Shown here one piece after another: positions 48,134-64,000 of a stretch of DNA of 64,000 bases. A program made the translations under genes and the position numbers. Position 1 is the stretch's first letter. The number at the start of each line of letters is the position of its first letter. This DNA is from an uncultured bacterium (lineage in GTDB: Bacteria; Arandabacterota; Arandabacteria; JAGLYR01). Under the pieces are notes generated by a model. That model saw nothing but the letters and a program-made list of their open reading frames with translations. It searched no databases and had not been told where the DNA came from. Location: contig CAZSXU010000024.1 of NCBI GenBank assembly GCA_964610505.1, forward strand, positions 91 through 64,090, written 5' to 3'.

Positions 48134-49354
48134 TCAGAGATACACGTGCACCGCCAAGAGAGCGAGGGCGCCCAGCTCCACCATGATCGCGGCCGGGATG
48201 AGGAGCCGGTAGACGGACGGGTAGTGGGCGGCGAAGTAGTTCTTGGTCAGGAGCAGGCAGAGATGCACGGGGGAGAGGAGGACGCCCACGAATCCGCTCA
48301 CATAGGCCAACATCACGAGTGAGAGGTTCGGATTCGAACCGCCCATGAGAGGAACCAGCATCGGGAAGGCCACTCCCACGTAAGCCTGATTGACACCGGT
48401 CAGAATCCCGACGGCAAAGGGGGCCAGCACCAGGAGCAGTGCGGGAGGGACGCCGAGGTTCTCGAAAGCACCGGGAATTCCCTCCACGGCCGCGGACGCT
48501 TCGAGAACCTCCTTGAAGATCATGACCGAAATCAGAACCAGCGCGGTCCGCCACGAGAGGCTTCTCCAGAGGAGCGTTCGGAACCGGACCCATTTCATCC
48601 GGCATATCAGCACGACGGCCAGAACGGTTGCCGCGAGGGCCGCAACCATGGGGATGTGAAGCGCGAGAACAAGGACGAGCACCAGCCCGATCGGCCACGT
48701 GCTGACCGCCAGGAATCGGAGCCCGGTGATCACGTCTCTCTCCACACGGGTTCCGGGCGGTTGCTTCGGCAGGCGGAGAATCCCGAACAGCACACCCGCC
48801 GCGATGGCGACAAGCGTGAGCGGATACTGCGCCGCCATCATACTCGTGATGGGTATTTCCAGAATCGTGGCCCCGATGATGAGCCCGGGATACAACGGCC
48901 AGAAATACTCCCAAAGGTGCCGGAACCAGTAGTTGATGAAGGTCTTCATCTCCGCTGTCAGATTCAGGGCCCGGCCGCCCTCCTCCACCATCGGCGCCGA
49001 AAGCATGGCCCCTCCGGGCATGGGCAGGAGGCCGATGAACGCGGGCGGAAGGACGAGGCTGATTCGCCGGTGGGGGATCAAATGCTCCAGGGACGTCGCT
49101 ATGTTTCGAAGGTTTCCCGTCTCTCCCAGAACGCTGCCCAGCAGGAGAATCAGCTCGATGATGGCGACCAGCTCGATGGTGGGAACCTGGAAAGTCCCGA
49201 GACCGAAGGAGCGCAGAACGTCGGGAAACGGCATTCCGAAGAGCACGCCCAGCAGGAGCGACGCGATGAGAATGCAGACACCGAGGTTCGCCCGTTTCAT
49301 CACGAGGAGGACGAACACGGCGATGACGATGAACAGCTTCAGCAGGATGATCAT
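48134..49354 (-). CDS. DUF401-family polytopic membrane protein (~12 TM)
   Basis: MIILLKLFIVIAVFVLLVMKRANLGVCILIASLLLGVLFG... hydrophobic throughout. ATG 49354 overlaps the MarR stop (ATGA), so the two are co-transcribed. The track ORF's 94-aa N-terminal extension overlaps marR and is rejected. Confidence 0.75.
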   Translation of the reverse strand: MIILLKLFIVIAVFVLLVMKRANLGVCILIASLLLGVLFGMPFPDVLRSFGLGTFQVPTIELVAIIELILLLGSVLGETGNLRNIATSLEHLIPHRRISLVLPPAFIGLLPMPGGAMLSAPMVEEGGRALNLTAEMKTFINYWFRHLWEYFWPLYPGLIIGATILEIPITSMMAAQYPLTLVAIAAGVLFGILRLPKQPPGTRVERDVITGLRFLAVSTWPIGLVLVLVLALHIPMVAALAATVLAVVLICRMKWVRFRTLLWRSLSWRTALVLISVMIFKEVLEASAAVEGIPGAFENLGVPPALLLVLAPFAVGILTGVNQAYVGVAFPMLVPLMGGSNPNLSLVMLAYVSGFVGVLLSPVHLCLLLTKNYFAAHYPSVYRLLIPAAIMVELGALALLAVHVYL

Positions 49355-49803
49355 TCCCGAGTCCCCTCCGGCTCGCGCATCAGGCCTTCCAGCAGAGCGG
49401 ACAACGCACTGGCAAGGGTCTTTCGCTGGTATGGTGTCAGCTCGGCGGCCGCGCGGGTCAGATCTCCCTCCGACCCCGATCGGATTTTCCGAACCAGAAC
49501 CCGCCCTCGCTCGGTGAGCCGGATCGGACACACCCGCCGGTCGTTGGGATAACGAGACCGGACCAGGAGGCCGGCCTTTTCGAGATGATCCAGGGATGAC
49601 GACACCGTGCTCTTCGGCATTCGGAGATCCATGCAAAGTTCCGAGAGCCGGGTCTCACCCCCGGACGCAATCGACGACAGCACCCTCGCCTGCGAGAGAC
49701 TCAGACCCGCCCTGGCGAGAGTCGTCTTTTCACAGGTCCGCATTCGAGTGAAGATCTCACCCAGCACTTGTGTGAGTCTGAGAACCGATGGGGGCGGCTG
49801 CAT
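49351..49803 (-). CDS. MarR-family transcriptional regulator
   Basis: A winged helix-turn-helix (LSLSQARVLSSIASGGETRLSELCMDLRMPKSTVSSSLDHLEKAGLLVRSRYPNDRRVCPIRLTERG) is typical of MarR. It is transcribed divergently from the OFOR-Hdr operon. Confidence 0.85.
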   Translation of the reverse strand: MQPPPSVLRLTQVLGEIFTRMRTCEKTTLARAGLSLSQARVLSSIASGGETRLSELCMDLRMPKSTVSSSLDHLEKAGLLVRSRYPNDRRVCPIRLTERGRVLVRKIRSGSEGDLTRAAAELTPYQRKTLASALSALLEGLMREPEGTRE

Positions 49804-50038
49804 GGGAATCCCCGTGAAAGTTCATGAACGGAACAGTTCGTTAACTGAACCATTCTGGCCCCAAGCGTCTAGGATGTCAAGCGTTAGTCTCGCACGGCAA
49901 TGGCGAATGTTCATTCTCACATCGATATTTTCCGTTGACAAACCGTTTCAAAGACGGCTAGAATTGGCGGCTAAGGTTGTGCGCCATGTCCACTGTGGCC
50001 CACGGTTCCTAAAGACACAACGCCAAAGGATTGGATGC

Positions 50039-50599
50039 ATGAGTTTTCGTTACGAGGTACGCTTGAGCGGCGCCGGAGGTCAGGGACTCTTGTTGATCGG
50101 AAAAGTCCTGGCCGAAGCCGCGGCCGTTTACGATGGGAAAAACGCGACGCAGTCACAGTCGTACGGCCCCGAAGCCCGTGGGGGCGCCAGCAAGAGCGAA
50201 GTCATCATCAGCGACGAAGAGATCGACTACCCCAAGGCGACGGAGATCGATTTCCTTCTGGCCCTGACTCAGGAATCCTGCGACAAGTACTCGGGTGACC
50301 TCAAGCCCGGCGGTATCTTGTTGGTGGACACAACGTTCGTCAGCCGGGTTCCGGAAGGCCAGTTCAAGATCTACCAAGCCCCCATCACTCAGAAAGCCAA
50401 GGACGTTCTCGGGAGCGCGACGGTGGCCAATGTGGTCGCTCTCGGAATGATTTCGGCATTGACCTCGGTCGTCACTTCGGAATCCATCGAATCCGCCATC
50501 CTGGCAAGGGTTCCAAAGGGGACCGAGGATCTGAACACGAAGGCGTTTCAGCTGGGAAGGACGCTCGTCGAGGAAGCCAGCGCGGGTCAAGCGTCATGA
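50039..50599 (+). CDS. 2-oxoacid:ferredoxin oxidoreductase gamma subunit (copy 1)
   Basis: MSFRYEVRLSGAGGQGLLLIGKVLAEAAAVYDGKNATQSQSYGPEARGGASKSEVIISDEEIDYP... is the canonical POR/KOR gamma fold. The track ORF 49607..50599 carries an unsupported N-terminal extension. Confidence 0.9.
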   Translation: MSFRYEVRLSGAGGQGLLLIGKVLAEAAAVYDGKNATQSQSYGPEARGGASKSEVIISDEEIDYPKATEIDFLLALTQESCDKYSGDLKPGGILLVDTTFVSRVPEGQFKIYQAPITQKAKDVLGSATVANVVALGMISALTSVVTSESIESAILARVPKGTEDLNTKAFQLGRTLVEEASAGQAS

Positions 50600-50654
50600 G
50601 GGTTTGCAGGCGGTAGCTTGGGCCGGCGCACGTGTCGAAGATGGAGGCTCAAGA

Positions 50655-50948
50655 ATGAAGTTCTGGAGAACCCCCCTAGATCAAGATCGCCTCAAGGTTC
50701 CCCACGGGGAAGTCCACATCATCAAGGACCGCTGCAAAGGATGTGGGTTCTGTGTAGAGTATTGCCCCCGGGGGGCTCTTGAAATGTCGGACGAGTTCAA
50801 CGTCAAAGGCTACCACCCCCCCCGAGTCACCGAAGAATCTCTCTGCGTGAATTGCAACCTCTGCGAAATGCTCTGTCCCGAATTCGCGATTTTCTGTGTG
50901 CTCAAGGATGAACCGGAATCCGGGGAGGTGAAGCAAGTTGAAGGCTGA
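50655..50948 (+). CDS. 2-oxoacid:ferredoxin oxidoreductase delta subunit (2x[4Fe-4S] ferredoxin)
   Basis: CKGCGFCVEYCP and CVNCNLCEMLCP motifs. ATG 50655 is preceded by GGAGG. Confidence 0.9.
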   Translation: MKFWRTPLDQDRLKVPHGEVHIIKDRCKGCGFCVEYCPRGALEMSDEFNVKGYHPPRVTEESLCVNCNLCEMLCPEFAIFCVLKDEPESGEVKQVEG

Positions 50949-52095
50949 TCCGAAGGGCGTCCTCACGGGCGCACACTACATCGACGGCAACTATGCGATT
51001 GCAGAAGGAGCGCTCGCGGCCGGGTGCCGTTTCTTTGGCGGATATCCCATTACCCCTTCCACCGAGATTGCGGAGCGGTTCGTTCAGCGAGCTCCTTTGG
51101 TGGGTGGCGTCTTCATACAGATGGAAGATGAGATGGCGTCCATGAATGCGGTTCTGGGCGCGTCGTGGGGCGGTGTGAAGTCCATGACCTGCACCTCGGG
51201 ACCGGGGTTCTCCCTCATGATGGAGAATTTCGGATTGGGTCTGATGCTGGAGACTCCCTGCGTTCTGGTGAACGTTCAGCGGGGCGGACCATCGACCGGT
51301 CTTCCCACCCTCCCCGGCCAGGGCGACATGATGCAGGCGCGGTGGGGGTCCCACGGAGACTATGAGGTCATCGCCCTGGCGCCCGATTCGCCGCAGGAAG
51401 GGTTCGAACTGGCCATCGACGCCTTCAATCTCTCCGAGACGTACCGGATGCCCGTTCTGATGATGACCGATGAGTGCGTGGGACACATGACGGAGAAGGT
51501 CGTGATCCCTCCCGCGGAGGAAATCGACGTCGAGCCGCGGCGGTACACCAAGAAGCCGCCCGCGGAGTTTCTGCCCTATGCCGTGGGCGACGATCTGGTG
51601 CCGGACGCTCCCCCGCCCGGGAAGGGTTACCGATTCCACGTGACGGGCCTCACGCACGACGAGCGCGGCTATCCGGTGATCAATGCCGAAGCTCAAGACA
51701 AGCTGGTCCGGCGACTGGTGGACAAGGTTAAGAAGAACGCTAAGGATATTATCCGTTTCGAGGAGATGGATACCGACGGAGCGGACGTCGTGGTGGTGTC
51801 CTACGGGATCACGTCCCGCGTGGTGCAACCGGCCATCGAAAAAGCGAAGAAGAAGGGAATCAAAGTCGGCCAGATCCGCCTGATCGTGGTCTGGCCCTTC
51901 CCGGAAGAGAAGATTCGGGAGCTGGCCGGCAGGGTCAAGACCCTCGTCGTTCCCGAGCTCAACCTGGGACAGGTTGTCCTCGAGGTGGAGCGGTTGAGCG
52001 CCGGCAAGTGTGGAGTGACCCCCGTGACCCACGCCGGCGGGGGCGTGCACGATCCGGAGGCCATCTTCCAGGCGATCAAGGAGGGCGTCAAATGA
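50938..52095 (+). CDS. 2-oxoacid:ferredoxin oxidoreductase alpha subunit
   Basis: The N-terminal alpha-subunit domain is …GNYAIAEGALAAGCRFFGGYPITPSTEIAERF...MEDEMASMNAVLGASWGGVKSMTCTSGPGFSLMMENFGL...NVQRGGPSTGLPT. The start is TTG with a GGGGAGGTG SD, overlapping the delta stop. Confidence 0.9.
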   Translation: MKADPKGVLTGAHYIDGNYAIAEGALAAGCRFFGGYPITPSTEIAERFVQRAPLVGGVFIQMEDEMASMNAVLGASWGGVKSMTCTSGPGFSLMMENFGLGLMLETPCVLVNVQRGGPSTGLPTLPGQGDMMQARWGSHGDYEVIALAPDSPQEGFELAIDAFNLSETYRMPVLMMTDECVGHMTEKVVIPPAEEIDVEPRRYTKKPPAEFLPYAVGDDLVPDAPPPGKGYRFHVTGLTHDERGYPVINAEAQDKLVRRLVDKVKKNAKDIIRFEEMDTDGADVVVVSYGITSRVVQPAIEKAKKKGIKVGQIRLIVVWPFPEEKIRELAGRVKTLVVPELNLGQVVLEVERLSAGKCGVTPVTHAGGGVHDPEAIFQAIKEGVK

Positions 52096-52961
52096 AAGTG
52101 GATGCGCCGGTGAGAGAACACCCGATGGAAGGCCTTCTCAGGATGGACCGGATTCCGCACATCTGGTGCCCGACCTGTGGAATCGGAACGGCGCTGACCG
52201 CGTTTGCGAGCGCTCTGGAGGAACAGGAGGTCTCCCCGGATTCGGTCTCCATCGTTTCGGGCATCGGTTGTACGGGGCGGGTGGCAGGCTACACCAAGCT
52301 CGATTCCTATCACACGACACACGGTCGGGGGATTCCGTTTGCCGTGGGACTCCATCTGGCCAACCCATCTCTGAAGGTCGTGGTTTTCAGCGGCGACGGA
52401 GACCTGGTAGGGATCGGCGGGAATCACTTCATTCACGCCGCCCGGCGGAACGTGGATATCACCGTGGTCTGCGTCAACAACTTCCTCTACGCCATGACGG
52501 GAGGGCAGGTGGCCGCGACGAGTCCCGTCACGGCAAATACATCCACCTCTCCCTACGGCAATTTCGAGCAGCCTTTCAGCCTGCCCCTCTTGGCGCAATC
52601 TTGCGGCGCCGTGTACGTGGCCCGGTGGACGGCTCTTCACATCCGGCGGATGACCAAGGCGTTTGGTGAGGCGCTCCAGAAGAAGGGGTTTTCCTTTGTG
52701 GAGGTCATCGCTCCCTGCTCGACGCTCTACGCCAGACGCAACAAGCTGGGCACGGGGCTCGACCTGATGAAATTCTATCACGACAACAGCGAAATCCGGC
52801 ACGGGGCCGATCCCAACGACCTGGACATCGGGTTTCAGCAGAAAATCGTCTGCGGCAAATTCGTGGATATTGAGAAGCCGACTTTCCTCGACGCGATGAA
52901 CGACGGATACCGCCGCGCATTCGGGGACAGGTACGAAGAATACGGAGGAGCCCATGCCTAA
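52092..52961 (+). CDS. 2-oxoacid:ferredoxin oxidoreductase beta subunit (TPP-binding)
   Basis: WCPTCGIGTALTAFA...GIGCTGRVAGY...VVFSGDGDLVGIGGNHFIHAARRNVDITVVCVNNFLYAMTGGQ is the TPP/GDG motif. ATG 52092 overlaps the alpha stop (ATGA) and has an AGGAGG SD. Confidence 0.9.
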   Translation: MKVDAPVREHPMEGLLRMDRIPHIWCPTCGIGTALTAFASALEEQEVSPDSVSIVSGIGCTGRVAGYTKLDSYHTTHGRGIPFAVGLHLANPSLKVVVFSGDGDLVGIGGNHFIHAARRNVDITVVCVNNFLYAMTGGQVAATSPVTANTSTSPYGNFEQPFSLPLLAQSCGAVYVARWTALHIRRMTKAFGEALQKKGFSFVEVIAPCSTLYARRNKLGTGLDLMKFYHDNSEIRHGADPNDLDIGFQQKIVCGKFVDIEKPTFLDAMNDGYRRAFGDRYEEYGGAHA

Positions 52962-53523
52962 GACAACCGAGATTCGGGTGAGCGGTTTCGGCGGGCAAGG
53001 CGTCATCATGCTGGGCCACATCATCGGGAAGGGAGCCTCGATTTTCGATGGGCGGTTTGCGACGATGACTCAGAGCTTCGGCCCGGAAGCACGCGGGTCG
53101 GCCTGCAGTTCCCAGGTCATCGTTTCGGACGATCGAATCCTGTACCCGTATTTGAGGACGGCGGACGTCTTGATCGCCATGTCGCAGGAGGCGTACGACA
53201 AGTTCCTGCCCGGGCTGGGCGCCAAAGGGACGCTTCTCGTCGATGAGGATCTGGTGAAGATGGGAAAGACCCCGGACGGGATCAAGGTGCACAGGGTCCC
53301 GGCCACCCGATTCGCCGAGGAACTCGGCCGGAGAATTGTCCTCAACATCGTGATGACGGGCTTCTTCACCGCTATTACCGGCGTGGTGAAGCCGGAGTCG
53401 ATGCGGGAAGCCGTGAAGACGTCGGTGCCCAAAGGCACCGAGAACCTGAACCTCCAGGCGTTCGACAAGGGGTTTGAGTACGGGCGCGAGCAGGTAGAGG
53501 GACATGCTGCAAGCAAGCGATGA
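52954..53523 (+). CDS. 2-oxoacid:ferredoxin oxidoreductase gamma subunit (copy 2, paralogue)
   Basis: [65 protein letters not shown]... is ~35% identical to copy 1. It overlaps the beta stop and the hdrA start. Confidence 0.85.
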
Positions 53524-56500
53524 CGGCGATCGCGAATACTCCGGTGGAGACGTCCCTGAGGCGGAAGGACCTCTCGTCGAGGAGACCCTCGGTGAGACCG
53601 CCGAAGAGCCCGCGTCCGAAGAACCCCGGGCGGCCCTGGTCGTCGGAGGCGGGATTGCGGGTATCCAGGCGGCCATCGATCTGGCCGACTCCAATCTCCA
53701 GGTGTACCTGGTGGAACGGTCTCCGAGCCTGGGTGGACGCATGGCCCAGCTCGACAAGACCTTCCCGACGATGGACTGCTCCATCTGAATTCTCGGTCCT
53801 CGAATGATGGATGCCGGTCGGCATCCCAACATCAAGGTTCTGACCTACTCGGAAGTCACGGGTCTCACGGGCGAGGCCGGAAACTTCACGGCCACGGTGC
53901 GGCGTCACCCCCGCTTCGTCAGAGAAGATCTTTGCACGGGGTGCGGCCAGTGTGTGGAGAAGTGTCCCGTGGTCGTCCCCAACGAGTTCGACGAGGGACT
54001 GGGCGCGCGAAAAGCCATCTACTCGCCCTTCGCCCAGGCCGTTCCCAACGTCTACGTCATCGATCGCGAACATTGCCTGAACAGCGACTTCCTGGTTTGT
54101 GAGAACTGCAGCAGATCCTGCGAGAGAGACGCGATCGACTACGACATGAAGCCCGAGGATCTCGACCTCCGGATCGGGGCCGTGGTGGTCGCTACGGGTT
54201 TTGATCTGTTTGATGCCCGCGCGATGAAGAACTACGGCTACGGTCTCTATCCCAACGTGCTGACCTCCCTTGAGCTCGAACGGATGCTGAACGCATCGGG
54301 CCCCACCCGGGGACACATCTTTCGGCCCACGGATCGGAAAGTCCCGCGATCGATCGTCTTTGTCCAGTGCGTGGGAGCCCGGGGAGAGGCGGGCCAGCAG
54401 TACTGCTCACAGTTCTGCTGCATGAACTCGGTCAAGGACTGCATGCTGGTCAAACAGCACGCGCCCGAGATCGAGCGGCTCGAGATTCTCTACACCGACG
54501 TGAGAGCCGCCGGAAAGGGGTTCGAGGAGCTCTACATCCGATCGCTCTCGCAGCCCGAAGTGTCCTATACGCGGGGCCGGCCCTCGAGGATCGAAGAAGA
54601 TCCCGACACGCAGGACCTCATCGTTCACGTGGAAGATACGAAAACGGGAAAGATCGAGAACGTTCGGGCCGAGATGGTTGTCCTCTCCTCGGCCGCCATT
54701 GCGGGGGCGAGGAATCGAAAGCTGGCCGAGGGCCTGGGAATCGATCTGGATCACCACGGGTACTTCCTGTCTCGGGAGGCGGAGGGAGAGTTGTTGGAGA
54801 CGACCCGTTCGGGCGTCTATCTGTGCGGGTGTGCCGGCGGCCCGAAGGACATCTCGGACTCGGTGGCCCAGGCCTCGGGAGCGGCCGCACGGGCGGAGGC
54901 TCACCTCGCGAATTGCCGGAGGCCTACGGAGAAGACGGAGGTCGAACCCCTGGATCTCTCGGGGCCTCCCCGGGTCGGCGTATTCCTTTGCCACTGCGGG
55001 ATCAACATCGCGGGGGTTCTGGATATTTCGACGTTGGGGGAGTCGGCCCGCGCCCTCCCGCACGTGGTCCATGTCGAGGAGAATCTGTTTCTCTGTTCGG
55101 ACACGGGACAGCGGGCGGTGCAGGAGGCCATTCGGGAGCACAAACTGAATCGTGTGGTGGCGGCGGCGTGCACGCCGCGAACGCACGAGCCGATCTTCCG
55201 CCAGAGCTGCCTGGAAATGGGCCTTAACCCTTATCTTTTCGAGATGGTCAATGTGCGGGACCAGTGTTCCTGGGTTCACACCCAGGAGCCGGCCCTGGCC
55301 ACCGAGAAGTCATTGGACCTTCTCCGGATGGCGGTGGCCCGGGCCGTCCGGCTGGAGCCTCTGGAGGCCCAGGAGATTTCGGTCGAACAATCCGCCATCG
55401 TGATCGGTGGGGGAATCGCCGGGATGCAGGCGGCCCTCGACCTGGACCGGCAGGGATTTCCGGTTACTCTCATTGAACAGGGAGACGCCCTGGGCGGGCG
55501 GCTGCTCGAAATCCACCGTCTCTATCCTGATTTCCGCGAGACACGCGTGCTCCTGGACGCCAAACGCCGAGACGTGGAGGCGAGCCATGTCGTGGTTCAG
55601 ACCGGAACCGAGGTGCGGTCGATCGGGGGCTTCGTAGGAAACTTCGAGGTGACGACGGATCACGGTACCCTCAAGACGGGCGCGATCATCCTGGCGATCG
55701 GTTCGGACCTCTACCGGCCCAAGGGGGAGTACGGCTTTGGCACGTACCCGAACGTGATTACGGGGCTGGATCTGGAGAGGCTGTTCTCCTCCTCGGGTGA
55801 GACCCTCATGCAAGACGGACGAGAGATCAAAACGGCGGCGTTCATCCAGTGCGTGGGATCTCGAGATCCCGAGGGACGCATCAGCTGCTCCCGTTACTGC
55901 TGCCCCACGACGGTGAAGCAGGCGATCGAGATGAGAGACCTCGGTGTGGAGGCGGTTGTTTTCTACCGCGACATGCGAACGGTGTCCCAGGGAACCGAGG
56001 AGCTGTACCGTCTGGCCCGGCAGAAAGGCGTACGTTTCATTCCCTACACGCCCGAGTATCGGCCGCGCGTTTCCGGGAACGAGGTCGCCCAGTCCGTAAA
56101 GGTGTTCCACGACATGCTCGGGGACGACGTCGAGGTCGACGTGGACCTCGTCGTGCTGGCCACGGCCATGGTGCCCCGCGAGAAAGAGACGGCCGATCTC
56201 CAGATGCTCCTGAAAGTGCCTCGCGGGACCGACGGCTTCTTCATGGAGCGGCACGCGAAGCTGGGACCCGTGGAGACGGTGGTGGAAGGGGTCTTTGTCT
56301 GCGGAACGGTCCAGGGGCCGAAGGACATCGCCGAATCCATCGCGCAGGCATCGGCGGCCGCGGCCAAGGCCGCCGCCCTGATCTGTCGCGAACGAATCGA
56401 GCTGGAACCCACGACGGCGGTCGTGGATACGGCCCTCTGCAGAGCCTGTGGCCGGTGCGTGGAGATTTGCGATTTCCATGCGCCGGAGATCCAAGATCTG

Positions 56501-56659
56501 CCGACCGGGCTTCGGGCCGCCGTGATCAACCAGGCCCTGTGCAAAGGATGCGGCACCTGTGCTTCGTTGTGCCCGACCGGAGCCATTGCGGCCCGGCACT
56601 TCACCGACGAGCAGATCTTCGCCATGATCGAATCGTTGCTCCTGGGAGAGGTGGTGTAG
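53504..56659 (+). CDS. hdrA: Heterodisulfide reductase subunit A-like flavoprotein, selenoprotein (in-frame UGA at 53786-53788), double-module ~1051 aa
   Basis: Track ORFs 53504..53788 and 53804..56659 are in the same frame, separated by TGA. Read-through gives ...[36 protein letters not shown], matching the conserved HdrA FAD-domain motif KTFPTxDC(S/A)xCIL(S/T)PKM(V)E(A)GRHPNI with Sec replacing the second Cys. Module 1 is GxGxxG FAD ([20 protein letters not shown]), Fd ([13 protein letters not shown]), and CVGAR...YCSQFCC. Module 2 is a Cys-rich N-domain ([14 protein letters not shown]...), a second FAD domain ([17 protein letters not shown]), CVGSRD...CSRYCC, and a C-terminal 2x[4Fe-4S] ([24 protein letters not shown]). 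Confidence 0.85.
53809..53826 (+). promoter_or_regulatory. SECIS-like hairpin GGAUGCC-GGUC-GGCAUCC downstream of the hdrA UGA
   Basis: A perfect 7-bp stem with a GGUC apical loop begins 21 nt after UGA. GGUC is also the apical loop of the E. coli fdhF SECIS (GGUUGCA-GGUC-UGCACC). Confidence 0.6.
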
Positions 56660-57160
56660 ATGGCCAGGAAGAAAACGCCCGGAGCGAAAACCCCCGCACG
56701 GGGCCGGAAGAAAGCGGTGGAATTCGTTCCCCGGATCATCGTTTTCGCGTGCAACTGGTGCAGCTATGCCGGGGCGGACAACGCCGGGGTCAACCGGATT
56801 CAATACTCCCCGCATTTCCGGGTCATCCGGACCATGTGTTCGGGACGCGTTCATCCCTCCTTCGTTCTGAGGGCCTTCGAACTGGGCGCGGACGGAGTTC
56901 TGGTCTCAGGATGCCACATCGGGGATTGTCACTACATCTTCGGAAATGAGAGGGCCATCGAGAACTTCGAGAAGACCAAGGCTTTGGTCAAGACCCTGGG
57001 TCTCGAAGAGGGCCGGATCCGGCTGGAGTGGGTTTCGGCCGCCGAGGGCCCTCGTTTCGGACAGGTCATCGATGAATTCGTCGATGCCGTTCGCAACCTG
57101 GGGCCCTCGCCGATCGGGAAGAATGGAGGGGCGGCCACGGGTGCTGAACCACGAAAGTGA
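56660..57160 (+). CDS. mvhD: MvhD-like (methyl-viologen-reducing hydrogenase delta subunit family / FlpD-like) [2Fe-2S] protein
   Basis: [18 protein letters not shown]...[39 protein letters not shown] is the hallmark MvhD motif. Confidence 0.85.
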   Translation: MARKKTPGAKTPARGRKKAVEFVPRIIVFACNWCSYAGADNAGVNRIQYSPHFRVIRTMCSGRVHPSFVLRAFELGADGVLVSGCHIGDCHYIFGNERAIENFEKTKALVKTLGLEEGRIRLEWVSAAEGPRFGQVIDEFVDAVRNLGPSPIGKNGGAATGAEPRK

Positions 57161-57198
57161 GCATCGTCGGGCCGGAATGTGAAACCCCTGAGCGCGGG

Positions 57199-58350
57199 AT
57201 GAGCAACGTGGAGATCTTCTGGAAGAGTATCAAGTCGAGCAGGGCCTACTCCTGTCTGGAGTGCGGCAAGTGTACGGCCTGCTGCCCGGTCTCCCGCTAC
57301 AACGGGGTGTTCTCGCCGCGCCGTGTGGTGGCCGAGACGATCGAGGGAGGTGGGGAGGGCCTGATCTCGAACGCCGCCCTTTGGGAATGTCTCACCTGTG
57401 GGATGTGTGAAGAACGCTGCCCGATGGACGTGCACTTCTCAGAGTTCATGAGGTCCCTCAGGACCGTCGCTCTGGATCGGGGATTCTCCTCGGTGCCGTC
57501 GCACGGAGGCGTGCTCCAGTCTCTGATGCGGATGATGGTGTCTCCCACGATGAAACAGGATCGGATGTGGTGGGTGACCGAGGATTTGGAGATCGAGTCG
57601 CGCGGGGAGATCCTCTACTTCGTCGGGTGTCTGCCCTATTTCGACGGTCTCTTCGCCCCGGATTTCAAGTTCAAACCTACGGACATCGCACAGGCGACGG
57701 TCCGGATTCTCAATGCGGCCGGAATCCAACCCGTGGTCGATCCCAACGAGCGGTGCTGCGGGCACGATCTCCTCTGGTCCGGAGACGAGAAGAACTTCAA
57801 GATGCTGGCAGAGCAGAACGTCGCAGCGATTCGGGAGACGGGGGCCTCGGTCGTGGTCACGGCCTGTGCGGAGTGCGCCTCGACGCTGAGAGACGTGTAT
57901 CCGGCATACGTCGGTGCCCCGGGCTTCGAAGTGAAACACCTGGCGGAACTGGTGACCGAGCGATCGGGGGACCTCTCCTTCAAGGAAGCCGCAGCAAGCG
58001 TGACCTTTCAGGATCCGTGTCGCTTGAGTCGGCATATGGGACTGAAGGACGCCCCCCGGCAGGCTTTGGACCTCGTGCCCGGTCTCACACGGGTGGAAAT
58101 GCTCCATTCCGGGTCGAACGCGATGTGCTGCGGTACCAGCGCCTGGATGAGCTGCGACCAGACATCCAAACGCATTCAGGGCGACCGGTTGGCGGAAGCC
58201 GAGGACACGGGGGCGGACACCCTGGTGACCGCGTGTCCCAAGTGTCAGATCCATTTCCGGTGTGCCCTTTCCGACGGACAGACGAGTGGACAACCCCAGA
58301 TGGATATCCAGGATCTGAGCGTTTTCCTGGCATCCTGCCTGCAGCGGTAG
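57199..58350 (+). CDS. hdrD: HdrD-like heterodisulfide reductase subunit (HdrC-type 2x[4Fe-4S] fused to HdrB-type tandem CCG domains)
   Basis: CLECGKCTACCPV and CLTCGMCEERCPM (HdrC part). The CCG domains are VGCLPYFDG...ERCCGHDLL and QDPCRL...MCCGTSAWMSC...ACPKCQIHFRC. ATG 57199 (MSNVEIFW) is preferred. The track start 57157 overlaps mvhD. Confidence 0.85.
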   Translation: MSNVEIFWKSIKSSRAYSCLECGKCTACCPVSRYNGVFSPRRVVAETIEGGGEGLISNAALWECLTCGMCEERCPMDVHFSEFMRSLRTVALDRGFSSVPSHGGVLQSLMRMMVSPTMKQDRMWWVTEDLEIESRGEILYFVGCLPYFDGLFAPDFKFKPTDIAQATVRILNAAGIQPVVDPNERCCGHDLLWSGDEKNFKMLAEQNVAAIRETGASVVVTACAECASTLRDVYPAYVGAPGFEVKHLAELVTERSGDLSFKEAAASVTFQDPCRLSRHMGLKDAPRQALDLVPGLTRVEMLHSGSNAMCCGTSAWMSCDQTSKRIQGDRLAEAEDTGADTLVTACPKCQIHFRCALSDGQTSGQPQMDIQDLSVFLASCLQR

Positions 58351-58371
58351 TTCAGCAGGAGGTGAATACGG

Positions 58372-60873
58372 ATGTTCGAGACGGCAAAGACAGACGGGAT
58401 CAGGGTCGGCGTGTTCGTCTGCGATTGCGGACTGAATATCGCAGGCACCGTGGATACGGAGGCGGTGGCGGAATACTCCCAGACCCTGGACGACGTGGTC
58501 GCCGTGATCCGCAACAAGTATACCTGCGCCGACCCCGGGCAGAATGAGATCAAGAAGGCGATCGTCGAACACAACCTGAACCGTGTGGTCGTCGCCTCCT
58601 GCACGCCGAAGATCCACGAGCCGACGTTTCGAAACTGCGTGGCCGAGGCGGGACTCAATCCGTATCTCTTCGAGATGGCCAACATCCGGGAGCACGTGAG
58701 CTGGGTCCATCAAACCGAGAAGGAAGCCGCCACCCAGAAGGCAAAGGACATCGTCAGGTCCGCCGTGGCTCGGGCCCGGCTGCTGGAAGCCCAGACCGAG
58801 GCAGAGGTGAAGGTCACACAGGCGGCCCTGGTCATCGGTGGGGGGGTGGCGGGAATCCAGGCGGCGCTGGATCTGGCCGACTCCGGCCATACGGTCTACC
58901 TGGTGGAGAAAGAGCCGACGATCGGCGGAATTATGGCCGCCCTCGACAAAACCTATCCGACCATGGACTGCTCCATATGAATTCTCGGTCCGAAAATGAT
59001 GGATGCCGGTCGGCATCCCAGGATCCGGCTTCTGGCCAACAGCGAAGTCACCGACGTCAAGGGATACATCGGGAATTTCACGGTGACGATCAGGCGCAAG
59101 GCCCGCTACGTGGACGAGACCGAATGTACCGCTTGCTCGGAATGCGCCAAGGTCTGTCCGGTTGCGGTGCCGGATGAGTACCAGCAGGGATTCTCCTCAC
59201 GGAAGGCAATCTATATTCCTTTCCCTCAGTCTGTTCCGTCCTCCTACATCATCGACATGGAGAGCTGCCTCGGGAATAACCCCATCGCCTGCGGGAAATG
59301 CCTGGAAGCGTGTGACAAGGACTGCATCGACTTCGACGCCAAGGACGAGTTCATGGAGGTCGAAGTCGGGACCGTCATCGCCGCCACCGGGATGGATGTA
59401 TTCGACCCGTCCGGCCTGGATGAATACGGGTACGGCAAGTATGAGAACGTGATCACGAGCATGGAGTTCGAGCGGTTGATCTGCGCGGGAGGGCCCACGG
59501 AGGGACACTTCATCCGGCCGAGCGACCGGAAGCTGCCGATGAGAATCGGATTCGTCCAGTGCGTCGGCTCCCGGTCCGAGAGAGGGGGCGTCCCGTACTG
59601 CGGCAACATCTGCTGCATGAACACCATCAAGGATACCCTTCTGCTGGCGGATCACTACCCGGACGTGGAATCCACGGTGTTCTACATGGACATTCGAGCT
59701 TTCGGGAAGGGATTCGAAGAGCTCTACCGGCGAAGCAAGGAGGAAGGGGTCCGCTACATTCGAGGCCTTCCGGGGGAGATCCTGGAGGATCCCAAGACCC
59801 GGAACCTCCGCGTGCGGGTGGAGAACACCACGGCCGGACGCCTGGAAGAGCACGAGCTGGACATGGTGGTCCTCTCGGTGGGAGTGATTCCCCGTCACGA
59901 TTCTCCCGCCATTCGCCAGCTGCTGACCCTCTCGAAGACGGCGGACGGTTTTCTCATGGAATCGCACCCGAAGCTGAAGCCCGTGGATGCCCCGACCCGG
60001 GGTGTATTCTTCGCCGGTTGCGCCGAGTATCCCAAGGACGTCAAGGATAGCGTGACGCAGGCGTCCGCTTCCGCTGCCCGCGCGGAGATTCTGCTCAACC
60101 AGGGGAAGGTGACCATCGAGGCCATCACGTCGAGGATCGACGCCGAGAAGTGCATCTTCTGCGGCCGGTGCGCGAAAGTCTGTCCGTATAACGCCATCAC
60201 CCAGCCCGATCGGAAGAAGAAACTGTTGCCCATGGTGGTGGAGGCTGCGTGTGCCGGGTGTGGAACCTGTGCGGCCGAGTGCCCGACGGATGCCATTGCG
60301 ATGCGGCATTTCACGGACGAGCAGATCCTGGCTCAGATCGATGCCTATCTGGCGGAGAAACCGGAAGAGCAGATTGTCATCTTCGCGTGCAACTGGTGTT
60401 CGTACCCGGGTTCGGACCTGGCCGGGACCTCGAGAATTCAGTATCCGACGCACGGCCGAGTGATCCGCACGATGTGTTCGGGGCGCGTGGACGAGAAATT
60501 CGTTCTCCGCGCCTTTGAGCTGGGGGCGCCGCTGGTGCTCGTGTCGGGGTGTCATTTCTCCGATTGCCACTACATCAGCGCCGTGCAGTGGACGCAGGCG
60601 CGAATCGAGAAGCTCTGGGACAAGCTCGAAAAGCTGGGCATCCGCCCCGAAAGGCTCCAGCTGGAGTGGATCAGCGCGGCGCAGGGCCAGAGATGGGCCG
60701 AAACGATGAAGGCCCTGGAGGATCTGCGTGGGAAGGTGACGAGGGAGGAGATTCAGGAAACCCGGAAGATCCTGACGGATCTCCGGGCGAAAAAGGGTGC
60801 GGGAAAGACGAAAGCCAAGGCCAAGGCCAAAACCAAGGCGAAGGCCAAGGCTAAAACCGGCACGTCGGAGTGA
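58372..60873 (+). CDS. hdrA: HdrA-like flavoprotein fused to C-terminal MvhD domain, selenoprotein (in-frame UGA at 58978-58980), ~833 aa
   Basis: Track ORFs 58372..58980 and 58996..60873 share a frame across TGA: ...[36 protein letters not shown]. Domain order is Cys-rich N-domain ([14 protein letters not shown]), FAD ([20 protein letters not shown]) with Sec, Fd ([13 protein letters not shown]), CVGSR...YCGNICC, and 2x[4Fe-4S] ([24 protein letters not shown]), then MvhD ([18 protein letters not shown]...[39 protein letters not shown]). An AGGAGGTGA SD sits before ATG 58372. Confidence 0.85.
59001..59018 (+). promoter_or_regulatory. SECIS-like hairpin GGAUGCC-GGUC-GGCAUCC downstream of the second hdrA UGA
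   Basis: The nucleotide context is nearly identical to the first hdrA: ccatggactgctccat(a/c)tgaattctcggtcc...aatgatggatgccggtcggcatccca. Confidence 0.6.
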
Positions 60874-60882
60874 GGGAGAACC

Positions 60883-61029
60883 GTGGCGGACGAAGCGGAT
60901 TTCAAGTGCCTCCGGTGTGGGGCGGATCTGAAGTTCCCCTACACGGAAGGAGAGGGGCCCAAAGAGCGGGCCTGCCCGAAATGTAAGAGCAACAGTGTGC
61001 GCCGGATCAAGAAAAAGAAAGACGAATAG
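60883..61029 (+). CDS. Small zinc-ribbon protein (48 aa; CxxC...CxxC), not in ORF track
   Basis: GTG start 4 nt after a GAGGGAG SD, immediately after the hdrA' stop. The product is VADEADFKCLRCGADLKFPYTEGEGPKERACPKCKSNSVRRIKKKKDE. It is too short for the track cutoff. Confidence 0.4.
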   Translation: MADEADFKCLRCGADLKFPYTEGEGPKERACPKCKSNSVRRIKKKKDE

Positions 61030-61099
61030 CGGCTCAGCTGCTGCTGCGGGTGGACCGATACGCATATCGGAGGGCGAACCTGAGGGATCGCCCTCCGCG

Positions 61100-61190
61100 C
61101 TGTCGGGGCGAACGGGCGGCAGCCCCCACCCCGAACCACAGATTAGCTGCCTCGCAAACGAGGCGGCGCACAGATTGCGCAGATTCAAAT
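61100..61190. repeat. Degenerate REP/MITE-like element (CCACAGATTAGCTGCCTCGCAAACGAGGCGGCGCACAGATTGCGCAGATTC; contains CGGGGCGA and GCCTCG-caaa-CGAGGC hairpin)
   Basis: Read directly downstream of the zinc-ribbon ORF. It shares the CCACAGATT / CACAGATTG motifs with the other copies. Confidence 0.45.
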
Positions 61191-61290
61191 GTGCATGGAG
61201 GCAAGAACCGGCCTCCATGCAGCAGCTATTCCCTTCGTGCTCTTCGTGATTCCGACTTTGGGTTCCGGCCGTAGCGGTTGAGGGTCGCCG

Positions 61291-64000
61291 ATGGACGCGC
61301 TCGCCATCCTGAAAGACCGGGCCTCGATTCTGGGCAATCACAACCAGAAATACATCCGGACCATCGAGACGTTCGAAGACCGCCTCACGCGGCGGCTTGA
61401 GCTTCGAGGGGTTCGCGATAAGGTCCATCTCTATCGCGACGCACCGAATCCGGGTCCCGAGATGGACGCGATCGTCTCGGTGTCCGACGACGGACAGGAC
61501 GTTCTCGATTTCCTCGGTTGCTATTACGCCTTCCGCTTCCTGGGGATGAATCTGGGGTTGTTGGACGCCCTTCACCTGGATCTCCTCTCGGAAGACGATC
61601 GCCCTTCGGTCTTGTTCCGACAATTCATGAAACAGTCCGGGACGGAATTCCGGATGCTGACCACGCATTACATGCAAAGGCTTCTGGACCTTTTCGTCGG
61701 CCGGGGAGAGGTGCCGGAATTCGTGCTTCTGGGTACGGGAACCCGGGCGGATCAGGACGATATCGACGTGGGGGTCGTGGTGAGTGGAGAGGGCGACCGG
61801 GACTGCCTGGATCGCGCCATCGGGCGGCTCCGGACGGAAATGCTGCGCCGGGCCAGCTGCCTTCATTTCCATCTCTCCGAACACGTCGGAACTCGGGTGT
61901 ACTCGGCCACGATCGAGGAGTACCAAACCCTGCTGGCCAAACGGATCCACGATTTCGTTATCATTAGCGAGATGCTGGGCGCGGCGCACATCCTGGGCAG
62001 CCGCCGGTTGTTCGAGGTGTTTCAGAGGGACGTGACGGACCGGTACTACTACCGGTTCGGGGAGAACATCTATCACGAGGGATTTCTCCGCGGCATCGTA
62101 GGTGAAATCCGTGCACTGGTCGCGCATCCGGTGCAGCTGGAGTCCATCCACCCGAAGAACGATGGGCTGAGGATGATCAAGGGGCTCATCGCCGCGATGA
62201 AGACCATCTTCGGCGTGCAGAAGGTCAATGCCTGGGACATTCTCGATGACCTCAGGGTCCGGGACGCCGACAACGCCCAGATCTACGAACAGCTGGATGA
62301 GGCGCTGACCTTCCTGGAGATCTTCCGGCACATCTATCAGCTCCTGGTGGTGCAGGAAGAGGACATTCCCCTCAGAGATGAGAACATCCGGCAGAATCTC
62401 CAGGTTGTCGCTACCCGCATGGGATACCACGACGTGGGGATCGTAAAGGCCTGGAATCACCTGGTCATCCACTACAACGAACATGTGAAACTCGCCCGGG
62501 AGGCGGTGACCGCCCTCATGCCTGACTTGACCGCGCACCTGGGGGAGTTCTCGATCTTCAGCTCGATGGCCCAGACGGCCAACCTCTCGGACGTGGCTGA
62601 GAACGTGAAGCAGAACCTGGCGGTGGGCTTCATCTCCGAAGCGGCGTTCTTCGGCGGAACGCGTTATTGGGACGACGTTCTGACCCGCCTGGAGGAAGAG
62701 AGCGGCCGGGTCCTGGGCCGATTCGTGGCGGACATAGCGGTTCTTGACAAACGCGTGCGAACCCAGCTTCTTCGGCGCTACGCCACCTGCGCAGGGTTCG
62801 CGCCCTATTCCATCCTGCGACTCCTCGTCGTCGTCAAGAGATACCGGGGGCACCCGGAGTCGGGCGCGATCTTTGAGGAGCTCACCCGCTTCGTTCTCGA
62901 GGAACTGAAACCGAGAGCCAACACGCCCACCCGGTTCTGCATGCTGTTCTACCTCTACCCGGAAGTCATGAACGGTTTCCTGGATCTCTGCTCCGACGAG
63001 GACCGCCTCCGGGTGAGGGAGCTGGTCCAGGGCCCCATCCACAGCGAGGAGTTCGTCGGTGTCCGGGAGGCCCTTCTCTACCTCTGCGATCTTCATATTC
63101 AATCGAGCCGCGCCTTCAAGCGGCAGATCATGAGCGTGGTCAAACGCCATCCGACAGTGCTCCATCATCTCCACGATTTCGACCGGCTGTGGGGCATGGC
63201 CCGGGGGTACTTCGCGGAGAGCCAGAGGATGCCCCAATTCAGGCGGCGAAAGGAGCTGTTGGGCGATTATTACGATCTCTCCTACCTGACCGTGGCGCTG
63301 GAAACCCTGGAGGGGAAGCCGATCGAGGACATCAATGCCCGGTTCACGGAGTTCTCGGACAACTACGTTCAGGTCCTCTTTGACATCTGCAGGCAGGAGG
63401 TCGAGGAGGAGTCCGGAGAACCCGTGGCGACGCGTGATTTGCTGGCCGTCTACGCAGCGGGGGGGAACGCGAGGGAACAGGCCTTCGACGACGATTACGA
63501 CATGTTCTTCGTGCTCAATTCCACGGACGAGGATGTCCGGATGCACTGCAACCGAATCGCTGGCAAGATGAACAGCGAGATCGGCAAGAGAGGCATCCTG
63601 CCCCACTATCGTCTGGCGGACCACTTCGGTCACTACGTGACGCTGGCGTCCGAGATTGAAGAACTTCTGACCTCGGAGAGCGAGGACGTGTTTGTGGATC
63701 AGTCACAGATCCTCGGATCGAGAATGGTGGTGGGCAGCCGAAAATTCGCGGAAAACTTCGAAGAGCACGTGATCGGCCCCCTCATCTTCCGGGACTCTGA
63801 GCGGTACGCGAAGCACATGATCAAGGAAATCCGATCGCGGCACGGGGAAGAGTCCCCCGGCGCACCCTGCCTGGACGTCAAGGAGTGCGCGGGCGGGCTC
63901 CGAGACATCGAGATGATGCTCCTGGTTCTCAAGGCTCGGTACGGCGTCCGGATGCATCTGGGGGAGAAGTTCGTCGATCTCATGGTGGACATCGCCAAGG
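61291..64000 (+). CDS. GlnE-like bifunctional adenylyltransferase/adenylyl-removing enzyme homologue (two nucleotidyltransferase domains + GlnD/GlnE-type helical domains), 3' end outside window
   Basis: The frame is open from ATG 61291 (GAGGG SD 6 nt upstream) to the window end (~903 codons). It is absent from the track because there is no stop in the window. NTase motifs are FVLLGTGTRADQDDIDVGVVV and VYAAGGNAREQAFDDDYDMFFVL. A GlnE/GlnD-type CAGGLRDIEMMLLVLKARYG motif is also present. The 1478-aa antisense track ORF 59197..63633 is its shadow. Confidence 0.6.
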   Translation, partial: MDALAILKDRASILGNHNQKYIRTIETFEDRLTRRLELRGVRDKVHLYRDAPNPGPEMDAIVSVSDDGQDVLDFLGCYYAFRFLGMNLGLLDALHLDLLSEDDRPSVLFRQFMKQSGTEFRMLTTHYMQRLLDLFVGRGEVPEFVLLGTGTRADQDDIDVGVVVSGEGDRDCLDRAIGRLRTEMLRRASCLHFHLSEHVGTRVYSATIEEYQTLLAKRIHDFVIISEMLGAAHILGSRRLFEVFQRDVTDRYYYRFGENIYHEGFLRGIVGEIRALVAHPVQLESIHPKNDGLRMIKGLIAAMKTIFGVQKVNAWDILDDLRVRDADNAQIYEQLDEALTFLEIFRHIYQLLVVQEEDIPLRDENIRQNLQVVATRMGYHDVGIVKAWNHLVIHYNEHVKLAREAVTALMPDLTAHLGEFSIFSSMAQTANLSDVAENVKQNLAVGFISEAAFFGGTRYWDDVLTRLEEESGRVLGRFVADIAVLDKRVRTQLLRRYATCAGFAPYSILRLLVVVKRYRGHPESGAIFEELTRFVLEELKPRANTPTRFCMLFYLYPEVMNGFLDLCSDEDRLRVRELVQGPIHSEEFVGVREALLYLCDLHIQSSRAFKRQIMSVVKRHPTVLHHLHDFDRLWGMARGYFAESQRMPQFRRRKELLGDYYDLSYLTVALETLEGKPIEDINARFTEFSDNYVQVLFDICRQEVEEESGEPVATRDLLAVYAAGGNAREQAFDDDYDMFFVLNSTDEDVRMHCNRIAGKMNSEIGKRGILPHYRLADHFGHYVTLASEIEELLTSESEDVFVDQSQILGSRMVVGSRKFAENFEEHVIGPLIFRDSERYAKHMIKEIRSRHGEESPGAPCLDVKECAGGLRDIEMMLLVLKARYGVRMHLGEKFVDLMVDIAK

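Follow-up and report, generated by a model that had tools for sequence, protein, structure and literature searches.

A conserved operon of 2-oxoacid:ferredoxin oxidoreductase and selenoprotein HdrA genes in an uncultured bacterium

The 2-oxoacid:ferredoxin oxidoreductases (OFORs) are the entry and exit points of the tricarboxylic acid (TCA) cycle in anaerobes, and in uncultured phyla without Rnf or suitable hydrogenases the source or sink of their low-potential electrons is often unclear. Here we describe a gene cluster in which the genes of such an enzyme run directly into those of HdrA, MvhD and HdrD proteins. The cluster lies at positions 50039-61029 of a stretch of 64,000 nucleotides (hereafter the window) of contig CAZSXU010000024.1, from an uncultured bacterium of the Arandabacterota (assembly GCA_964610505.1).

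Gene content and layout of the cluster

Open reading frame (ORF) mapping and translation placed ten genes in the cluster, all on the + strand (Table 1), with junction gaps of 4, -11, -4, -8, -20, 0, -4, 21 and 9 nt from the first gene to the tenth. The alpha/beta junction is an ATGA overlap, and gamma2 overlaps hdrA by 20 nt. A co-directional, tightly packed operon with these same two overlaps had been described in a first-pass annotation made from the DNA letters alone. Domains were assigned by Pfam, NCBIfam and PDB sequence searches, and every annotation for which that first reading had called for a database check was matched by one of them; the OFOR, HdrA, MvhD, HdrD and zinc-ribbon identities stand, while the leading gamma gene turned out to be a separate paralog. 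The starts of korD (TTG 50604 or ATG 50655) and hdrD (57157 or 57199) are ambiguous, public gene calls differing between samples, and the longer versions of both yield overlapping or abutting junctions.

Four of the genes encode the OFOR. The alpha subunit scores 558 bits against NF006412, a 2-oxoacid:acceptor oxidoreductase alpha model with a curated cutoff of 411, and its closest PDB chains are 1yd7 (2-keto acid:ferredoxin oxidoreductase) and 8ys5 (2-oxoglutarate synthase alpha). Beta, whose best PDB match is 8ys5_C (2-oxoglutarate ferredoxin oxidoreductase beta), has the thiamine pyrophosphate (TPP) motif GDG-X27-NN from residue 101 and the cluster cysteines Cys26, 29, 60 and 209, and is predicted to carry the TPP site and a [4Fe-4S] cluster. 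Delta is a 2x[4Fe-4S] ferredoxin-like protein with two CxxCxxCxxxC motifs. For the OFOR subunits as a whole, the closest solved chains are 1yd7, 8ys5 and 6n2n. An alpha subunit above cutoff, the beta motifs, the delta clusters, a gamma and the D-A-B-C order together describe a four-subunit OFOR. The order D-A-B-gamma2 is kept in relatives, and gamma2 shares 56-65% identity with the gamma located after beta in Zixibacteria and KSB1; judged by homology, the true enzyme is korD-A-B-C, with gamma2 (gamma' in the first reading) as its canonical gamma. Gene order, TPP motif and Fe-S motifs are alike in the OorDABC/KorDABC 2-oxoglutarate:acceptor oxidoreductases (PDB 8ys5; PRK08659, PRK09627, PRK09628), from which the present genes differ in being translationally coupled to hdrA and, in this lineage, in having an extra gamma paralog in front. 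The NCBIfam best models for delta and beta are 2-oxoglutarate (Oor/OGOR) models; for both gammas the top models are generic 2-oxoacid gamma models, and OorC ranks third. Because of the 8ys5 and OGOR_delta/OorC/OorD matches, together with a sucC-sucD pair directly 5' of korD on a KSB1 contig (L086), the substrate is most likely 2-oxoglutarate/succinyl-CoA.

The 1051-aa HdrA reads as a fused, permuted dimer. Residues 44-483 align with 146-575 of M. thermolithotrophicus HdrA (5odc_A), covering TrxR1 and the inserted ferredoxin domain; residues 490-716 align with 5-232 (N-domain and the start of TrxR2) and residues 653-1045 with 257-649 (the remainder of TrxR2 and the C-terminal ferredoxin domain). 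Module 1 accordingly consists of TrxR1 with flavin adenine dinucleotide (FAD), a CxxU motif and an inserted 2x[4Fe-4S] domain, and module 2 of the HdrA N-domain, TrxR2 and a C-terminal 2x[4Fe-4S] domain. TrxR2 has neither an inserted ferredoxin domain nor a CxxC/U pair, and the chain holds a single copy of each accessory domain, distributed over the two TrxR modules. Both modules retain the flavin-adjacent cluster motif (QCVGSR...C...CC...K) and, by motif position, the lysine matching Lys409 of 5odc_A (K806 in TrxR2), a residue that we take to mark the bifurcating flavin, in agreement with what has been described for BamE.

The second HdrA gene appears to encode a canonical full-length HdrA fused to MvhD, since HdrA2 aligns end to end with the methanogen protein (5odc_A 5-649) and the C-terminal domain of the fusion aligns with MvhD (5odc_D). 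The TrxR-fold FAD domain, the cluster motif, the CxxC/U pair, the N-domain cluster and both ferredoxin domains of the HdrA family were all found, and electron bifurcation by the HdrA proteins is predicted here. The stand-alone MvhD has an FlpD domain with five cysteines, and it is this protein, not the MvhD domain of the fusion, that matches profile positions 646-774 (the MvhD part) of the NCBIfam model hetero_SS_HdrA2. HdrD matches PDB HdrC and HdrB and contains a pair of cubane-cluster motifs and two CCG motifs, in which all ten cysteines are present (C158, 200, 201, 237, 240; C288, 324, 325, 360, 363). The zinc ribbon has a CxxC...CxxC pattern and a basic tail, and it is kept after HdrA2-MvhD in many relatives.

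Several of these proteins bear charged low-complexity extensions: an acidic leader of ~40 aa on HdrA (53504-53630), a basic N-terminus on MvhD (56660-56730) and a Lys/Ala-rich tail on HdrA2-MvhD (60790-60870). Their complementary charges might help assembly.

Table 1. Positions in the window of the cluster genes, their neighbours and the associated signals (Sec, selenocysteine; SECIS, selenocysteine insertion sequence).
Feature	Position	Strand	Evidence or remark
gamma1	50039-50599	+	Pfam POR 6e-38
KorD/OorD, delta	50604-50948	+	Pfam Fer4; NCBIfam OGOR_delta, OorD best
KorA/OorA, alpha	50938-52095	+	POR_N 3e-68 and PFOR_II
KorB/OorB, beta	52092-52961	+	TPP_enzyme_C 4e-33
gamma2 (KorC/OorC)	52954-53523	+	POR 6e-33
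HdrA, fused dimer, Sec, 1051 aa	53504-56659	+	PDB 5odc_A 5e-196, three stretches
Sec codon UGA; SECIS-like hairpin	53786-53788; 53809-53826	+	In HdrA
MvhD-type [2Fe-2S] adaptor	56660-57160	+	Pfam FlpD 5.5e-51
HdrD (HdrC-HdrB fusion)	57157-58350	+	Pfam CCG 4.7e-32 and Fer4_8
HdrA2-MvhD fusion, Sec	58372-60873	+	5odc_A 1.8e-244; Pfam FlpD 3e-42
Sec codon UGA; SECIS-like hairpin	58978-58980; 59001-59018	+	In HdrA2-MvhD
Zinc ribbon, FmdB-type	60883-61029	+	Weak Zn_ribbon_8, TIGR02605
Structured spacer, 261 nt	61030-61290	+	Three strong long hairpins
BIG, GlnE-like tandem nucleotidyltransferase	61291-64000, continuing beyond window end	+	Pfam GlnD_UR_UTase 1.2e-12
Sigma-70-like promoter match TTGACA-18-TAGAAT (11/12)	49935-49964	+	75 nt 5' of gamma1 ATG
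Two promoter-like matches	49880-49852, 49941-49913	-	MarR side
MarR-family regulator	49351-49803	-	Pfam MarR, MarR_2; divergent from operon
DUF401/TIGR00529 membrane protein	48134-49354	-	DUF401 1.3e-63; TIGR00529 1.9e-82; weak GntP_permease

Each HdrA gene contains one in-frame TGA, within the motif MDCSI-U-ILGP, whose U aligns with Cys197 of 5odc_A. An identical SECIS-like hairpin (GGAUGCC-GGUC-GGCAUCC, with loop GGUC) begins 23 nt past each UGA. The TGA and the hairpin are kept in both paralogs and in every bacterial relative examined, across several phyla, and the hairpins of relatives show compensatory changes (C-G to U-A, and G-U wobbles). The Thermoplasmata relative L014 has TGC (Cys) at that position in its hdrA2-mvhD gene, by a single motif match. 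The alignment with Cys197, the conserved TGA, the co-varying hairpin and the archaeal cysteine make it sound to read both HdrA genes as selenoprotein genes, as the first-pass annotation had done. No tRNA gene, hence no tRNA-Sec gene, was found within the 64-kb window. Automatic gene calling breaks each of the two HdrA genes at its TGA, as would be expected if these codons were true stops or pseudogene lesions in broken genes of a decaying cluster. We regard such decay as extremely improbable: the TGA falls exactly at the Cys197 position and homology runs on either side of it, the codon and its co-varying hairpin persist in both paralogs of the bacterial relatives where an archaeal relative has cysteine, and the same codon recurs as the point of truncation elsewhere. 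Of the 120 database homologs listed, almost all measure ~950 aa, and gene callers have therefore cut them at the Sec codon as well.

A scan of 49-62 kb gave three promoter-like matches, all within the MarR/gamma1 intergenic region, and no promoter-like site within the ten-gene cluster. Terminator-like sites in the same interval were at chance level (12, versus 9.0 +/- 3.3 in shuffled sequence); one of them corresponds to the SECIS-like hairpin as it reads on the other strand, and none inside the cluster is convincing. Separate promoters or terminators between the OFOR and Hdr halves, which the first reading had named as evidence that would speak against a functional unit, were thus not found in any convincing form within the cluster. 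An Rfam scan of 49-62 kb (E<=1) returned two chance-level matches and no SECIS or riboswitch family.

Conservation of the cluster and the gamma1-BIG pair

Related loci were collected by scanning species-representative genomes and metagenomes and then by tblastn with the window proteins; the clade was filled mostly by the metagenome scan, made with a single protein. Synteny was counted for HdrA homologs with at least 4.5 kb of upstream sequence, divided at 48% identity in module 1. OFOR alpha and beta genes lie upstream on the same strand for 30 of 36 HdrAs that are at least 48% identical, and for 0 of 64 that are less similar (Fisher p = 7e-20). An OFOR is nonetheless present in three of the six misses (one beyond the distance limit, one frameshifted and one divergently oriented), which on inspection brings the count to 33/36. 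The OFOR linkage is not due to chance and marks out one HdrA clade.

The common colinear order is korD-A-B-C, double hdrA, mvhD and hdrD, usually with hdrA2-mvhD and the zinc ribbon and often with hdrC-hdrB. It was found in Planctomycetota, Gemmatimonadota, metagenome-assembled genomes (MAGs) of Deltaproteobacteria, Zixibacteria, KSB1, Eisenbacteria, Thermoplasmata archaea and many unassigned contigs; a short Holophagae contig (L009) shows the hdrA-mvhD-hdrD part only. The clade is present in at least 8 phyla. Among the matches listed, the closest HdrA comes from Candidatus Eisenbacteria (80% identity), and homologs of ~60% identity come from Zixibacteria, KSB1, Calditrichota and other members of the FCB group. 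The junction between the two halves is also kept: in 25 of 28 loci the distance between the korC (gamma2) stop codon and the HdrA Rossmann motif is 14-122 nt.

When the ORFs of 48 related loci were clustered, no further recurrent family appeared in the neighbourhoods except spurious antisense ORFs; Kor, Hdr, MvhD, gamma1 with the GlnE-like protein BIG (see below) and the zinc ribbon are therefore the system. As a functional unit the OFOR-Hdr cluster is well supported by synteny, and its recurrence in many uncultured bacterial phyla makes it very likely that its parts work together. The conservation of OFOR, HdrA, MvhD and HdrD together, proposed beforehand as a check, holds across many phyla, and the first reading as a whole stands in its gene identities, selenocysteines, packing and synteny; it needs revision in the role of the leading gamma, and HdrC/HdrB must be added; the physical supercomplex that it suggested is a hypothesis.

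These hdrC and hdrB genes lie inside the cluster and on the same strand in relatives (48-60% identical), and are part of the conserved system. In L086, L095, L108 and L125 hdrCB is found upstream of hdrA or of korD. In the present genome hdrB-like and hdrC-like genes are located past the window end, ~4 kb past the zinc ribbon, at 18362-20501 of L001, a longer contig that includes the region past the 3' end of the window; they are transcribed the other way, lie behind a second OFOR (beta subunit) and converge on BIG.

In the KSB1 locus L086 a gene for Fic (an AMPylase) stands between korC and hdrCB, and two malic-enzyme genes and another OFOR follow, which places a TCA-cycle context and a second kind of nucleotidyl-transferase beside the cluster. 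The Thermoplasmata/Thermoplasmatota MAGs L014 and L016 contain korDABC-hdrA-mvhD-hdrD, and L014 also hdrA2; these archaeal copies imply transfer of the cluster between domains. As a separate observation, the fused-dimer HdrA is tandemly duplicated within the cluster in L113, L115-L118, L127, L129 and L131.

The gene heading the operon, gamma1, had been read at first as an OFOR subunit, and this reading does not hold. Gamma1 is 47% identical to a divergent Zixibacteria gamma, which is divergently placed upstream of korD, and 43% identical to gamma2. Genes of the gamma1 type adjoin BIG in 14 of 16 cases and a beta subunit in 0 of 16; those of the gamma2 type adjoin a beta subunit in 28 of 37 cases, and none adjoins BIG. 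The identity pattern and the neighbour counts rule out a recent duplicate of gamma2. By ancestry, gamma1 is a separate OFOR gamma-like (domain III) paralog and not a subunit of this OFOR.

Its partner BIG is 1104 aa in full (L001 14632-17946) and belongs to a family of ~350 members, typically ~985 aa, all annotated as hypothetical and found in the same phyla as the cluster. Invariant in it are the nucleotidyltransferase motif G-x-(9-13)-D-x-D, at 150-159 and 724-737, and GGLRDIE at 868-874. Each nucleotidyltransferase domain is followed by a helical GlnE/GlnD domain, as in a GlnE-like protein, and the folds that best match the AlphaFold2 model (pLDDT 84) are those of the two E. coli GlnE domains, N-terminal and C-terminal, 1v4a (E 2.5e-8) and 3k7d (E 3.6e-7). 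The Eisenbacteria-type BIG has an added C-terminal HdrC-like 2x[4Fe-4S] domain. Only in the present lineage is the pair split to the two ends of the operon, with gamma1 at its head and BIG after the zinc ribbon. From these neighbourhoods gamma1 and BIG are seen as a conserved two-gene module tied to the OFOR-Hdr cluster, and the pair suggests regulation based on nucleotidylylation.

Proposed electron path and alternatives

Three kinds of known system can be compared with the cluster. The first is the tfrBA-hdrCB-korDABC-hdrA-flxDCBA-aclBA cluster of the reductive TCA (rTCA) cycle in Candidatus Endoriftia, the Escarpia symbiont and Thioflavicoccus mobilis (Rubin-Blum 2019, PMC6315080; Mitchell 2024, PMC11636981). 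For it, a complex shuttling bifurcated electrons directly to the 2-oxoglutarate oxidoreductase (OGOR) has been proposed (Rubin-Blum 2019, PMC6315080), as has direct delivery to KorABCD from an Hdr-Flx complex, with co-expression supporting an operon (Mitchell 2024, PMC11636981). As in our cluster, KorDABC directly precedes hdrA and an MvhD-type gene (flxD). The nesting of korDABC between hdrCB and hdrA-flxD is shared as well, the order here being korDABC-hdrA-mvhD, with hdrCB in the cluster in relatives. The differences are these: the FlxABC NADH-dehydrogenase module, TfrAB and ATP-citrate lyase are absent from the window and not recurrent in the 48 related loci; and the fused-dimer Sec-HdrA, HdrD, HdrA2-MvhD, the zinc ribbon and the gamma1 and GlnE-like pair are added. 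The hosts here are uncultured and mostly heterotrophic members of the FCB group and other phyla. Mvh/Hdr, pyruvate:ferredoxin oxidoreductase (PFOR) and OGOR genes have also been noted as clustered in Zixibacteria RBG-1 (Castelle 2013).

The second is BamDEF of class II benzoyl-CoA reductase (BCRII), which has the same trio of fused HdrA, MvhD and HdrD; the likeness is read from its described architecture. In Geobacter metallireducens BamE is a fused HdrA dimer whose first flavin bifurcates and whose inserted ferredoxin domain feeds BamBC, BamF is the MvhD adaptor from the second bifurcating module, and BamD removes the high-potential electron (bioRxiv 10.64898/2026.04.10.717634). The HdrA described here has a BamE-like architecture, with two TrxR modules per chain, a single inserted ferredoxin domain and adjacent MvhD and HdrD. 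Both systems use Sec and have a second HdrA/bifurcation module alongside, and in both, we propose, a catalytic module occupies the low-potential branch via the inserted ferredoxin domain. They differ in the output enzyme (OFOR here, tungsten BamBC there), in the second module (HdrA2-MvhD here, HydBC-like BamGHI there) and in the place of Sec, which is in HdrA (CxxU) here and at Sec19 of BamF there. They differ also in TrxR2, which by motif position has a lysine (K806) here, unlike the Gln of BamE, where the second flavin is non-bifurcating.

The third kind comprises the methanogen systems. In a methanogen, an Hdr-Vhu-Fwd super-assembly has been described in which flavin-based bifurcation links the oxidation of H2 to the reduction of CO2 (PMC13518236). 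Among the MvhAGD-HdrABC and Fdh/Vhu-Hdr-Fmd/Fwd supercomplexes (5odc, 7bkb, 8rvu, 9sw2), HdrA2 and its MvhD domain align with 5odc_A and 5odc_D, Sec standing where 5odc_A has Cys197, and the shared principle is that the low-potential electron from bifurcation enters a CO2-fixing enzyme directly. In contrast to them, the present cluster lacks hydrogenase, formate dehydrogenase and a coenzyme M/coenzyme B context, has HdrD beside HdrBC, and has an OFOR as partner. The HdrA2B2C2 enzyme of Methanosarcina acetivorans, on which Yan, Wang and Ferry reportedly wrote in mBio in 2017, is said to include an HdrA-MvhD fusion. The fusion found here is the same, and hdrC/hdrB are adjacent in relatives of our cluster; the differences are the bacterial host, Sec, the lack of an F420 context and the position of the gene inside a kor operon.

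Direct wiring of an OFOR to Hdr is therefore not unprecedented, having been put forward for tubeworm symbionts and Thioflavicoccus, where biochemically it is a proposal. Our literature search, which was incomplete and may have passed over earlier mentions, found no description of this exact cluster variant; what is new, and not previously described, is the combination of two HdrA modules and the presence of gamma1 with its GlnE-like partner.

We propose that the operon encodes one redox machine in which the bifurcating flavin, located in TrxR1 of the fused HdrA, would have KorDABC in place of free ferredoxin as its dedicated low-potential partner. The case for this is made by the motifs, the single upstream promoter region, the tight junctions, the clade-specific synteny, the absence of any extra family and the precedents, and we judge the proposal about as likely to be right as wrong. 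The bifurcating FAD would lie in TrxR1, beside the Cys-x-x-Sec pair. KorD would dock on the inserted two-cluster ferredoxin domain, which would exchange low-potential electrons with both the clusters of KorD and the TPP site. From the flavin-side cluster the high-potential electron would move on to HdrD; both non-cubane-cluster motifs of HdrD are intact, which suggests that it acts on a disulfide/dithiol. MvhD and the C-terminal ferredoxin domain would link to a mid-potential partner, probably HdrA2-MvhD with the HdrCB encoded nearby. HdrD, and HdrCB with HdrA2, would serve disulfide/dithiol couples at the high-potential end, and the MvhD domains would connect the two HdrA modules or a further donor.

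Such a machine could run either way. Forward, it would convert succinyl-CoA to 2-oxoglutarate by reductive carboxylation, with disulfide reduction covering the cost; backward, by confurcation, 2-oxoglutarate oxidation would pull thiol oxidation. The precedents all run toward the low-potential enzyme, which would mean 2-oxoglutarate synthesis here, and a GlnE-like regulator would fit control of 2-oxoglutarate supply. The surroundings suggest another use. Positions 1-47000 of the window encode many secreted peptidases, several of them FlgD_ig-tagged, among them a C25 peptidase of 1480 aa (35228-39670), and a TonB-dependent receptor; one FlgD_ig-tagged protein has a faint Por_Secre_tail match, and two-component systems are also encoded elsewhere in the window. 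This content points to a proteolytic, peptide-degrading heterotroph of the FCB group, and such a host and the permease-like gene upstream of the operon fit 2-oxoacid oxidation with confurcation.

Several points weigh against KorDABC as the dedicated partner of the bifurcating flavin. A 2-oxoglutarate synthase normally uses ordinary reduced ferredoxin, and the need for bifurcation is not obvious. The lysine retained in both TrxR modules, unlike in BamE, leaves it ambiguous which flavin would bifurcate, the substrate specificity of the OFOR is read from homology only, and a peptide-degrading host fits the oxidative direction better than carbon fixation. A mid-potential input module (hydrogenase, formate dehydrogenase, Flx or NuoEF-like) is neither in the window nor recurrent in relatives, so the stoichiometry cannot be closed; in particular, neither a hydrogenase nor a formate dehydrogenase is annotated at any point of the window, in line with the first-pass annotation, which had seen no MvhAG or formate dehydrogenase partner. 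Finally, no OFOR-Hdr fusion was found at 42 gamma2/hdrA junctions (0/42), and fusions are equally absent at beta/gamma2 (0/41) and hdrD/hdrA2 (0/53) junctions; the only fusions seen are HdrA-MvhD and a few MvhD-HdrD, the latter outside the OFOR clade.

This absence of fusions would be natural if the cluster held separate, co-regulated enzymes, an OFOR and a soluble, Hdr-like ferredoxin:disulfide oxidoreductase, linked by free ferredoxin. Many OFORs work with free ferredoxin, and some relatives (L086, L110) have hdrCB or Fic between kor and hdrA, or a divergent kor. The korC-hdrA junction is nonetheless extremely tight and kept across phyla, the linkage is restricted to one HdrA clade, no ferredoxin gene is conserved in the cluster, and known HdrA systems dock their partners directly. 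On balance, we consider separate enzymes rather unlikely.

A different role for the OFOR would be that of electron input, in place of MvhAG or FdhAB. Electrons from 2-oxoacid oxidation (about -500 mV) would reach the HdrA flavin via MvhD, and the flavin would bifurcate to a disulfide (through HdrD/HdrCB) and to free very low-potential ferredoxin or another acceptor at the inserted domain. No donor module apart from the OFOR is encoded or conserved; the host is a proteolytic heterotroph with a putative organic-acid permease and MarR upstream; and in known systems MvhD adaptors link the donor module and HdrA (BamF). However, in the sole interleaved precedent, that of Endoriftia, Kor is the proposed acceptor and Flx the donor, the gene order resembles that of bamBC-D-E-F-GHI, the OFOR standing at the output end as BamBC does, and there is no known physiological need for an acceptor below ferredoxin potential. 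An OFOR acting as donor thus seems to us unlikely.

Returning to the OFOR as dedicated low-potential partner, one may extend the proposal to a widespread new class of HdrA supercomplex, in which two bifurcation modules, one a BamE-like dimer plus HdrD and the other HdrA2-MvhD plus HdrCB, would stand in series with a 2-oxoglutarate synthase/oxidase and would lack any input module for NADH, H2 or formate. The GlnE-like nucleotidyltransferase and the free gamma-like subunit would switch it by reversible nucleotidylylation, tied to 2-oxoglutarate/nitrogen status. We offer this extension as speculation, with a low expectation that it is correct in full.

If the dedicated-partner proposal is true, the OFOR would be the third catalytic enzyme plugged into the HdrA low-potential arm, after Hdr-Fwd and BCRII, and the rTCA model of the vent symbionts could gain an experimental footing. 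The clade can be recognized from sequence (HdrA module 1 at least ~48% identical), and its archaeal versions, which contain Cys, are expected to pose fewer difficulties for expression than those with Sec. Post-translational control, which is not known to occur in this class of enzyme, is hinted at by the GlnE-like protein.

Flanking regions

The MarR-family regulator is divergently transcribed upstream of the operon, as the first reading had it. The DUF401 protein, in the same divergent MarR operon, may be an organic-acid transporter, and the MarR-DUF401 pair likewise lies upstream of the cluster in an Eisenbacteria relative (L087).

The spacer between the zinc ribbon and BIG is strongly structured, with a minimum free energy of -127 kcal/mol versus -105.8 +/- 5.4 for shuffled sequences (z = -3.95), and matched no Rfam family. 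In L087, the closest relative, the corresponding spacer is 13 nt only. The spacer is probably the 3' end of the operon or a point of attenuation.

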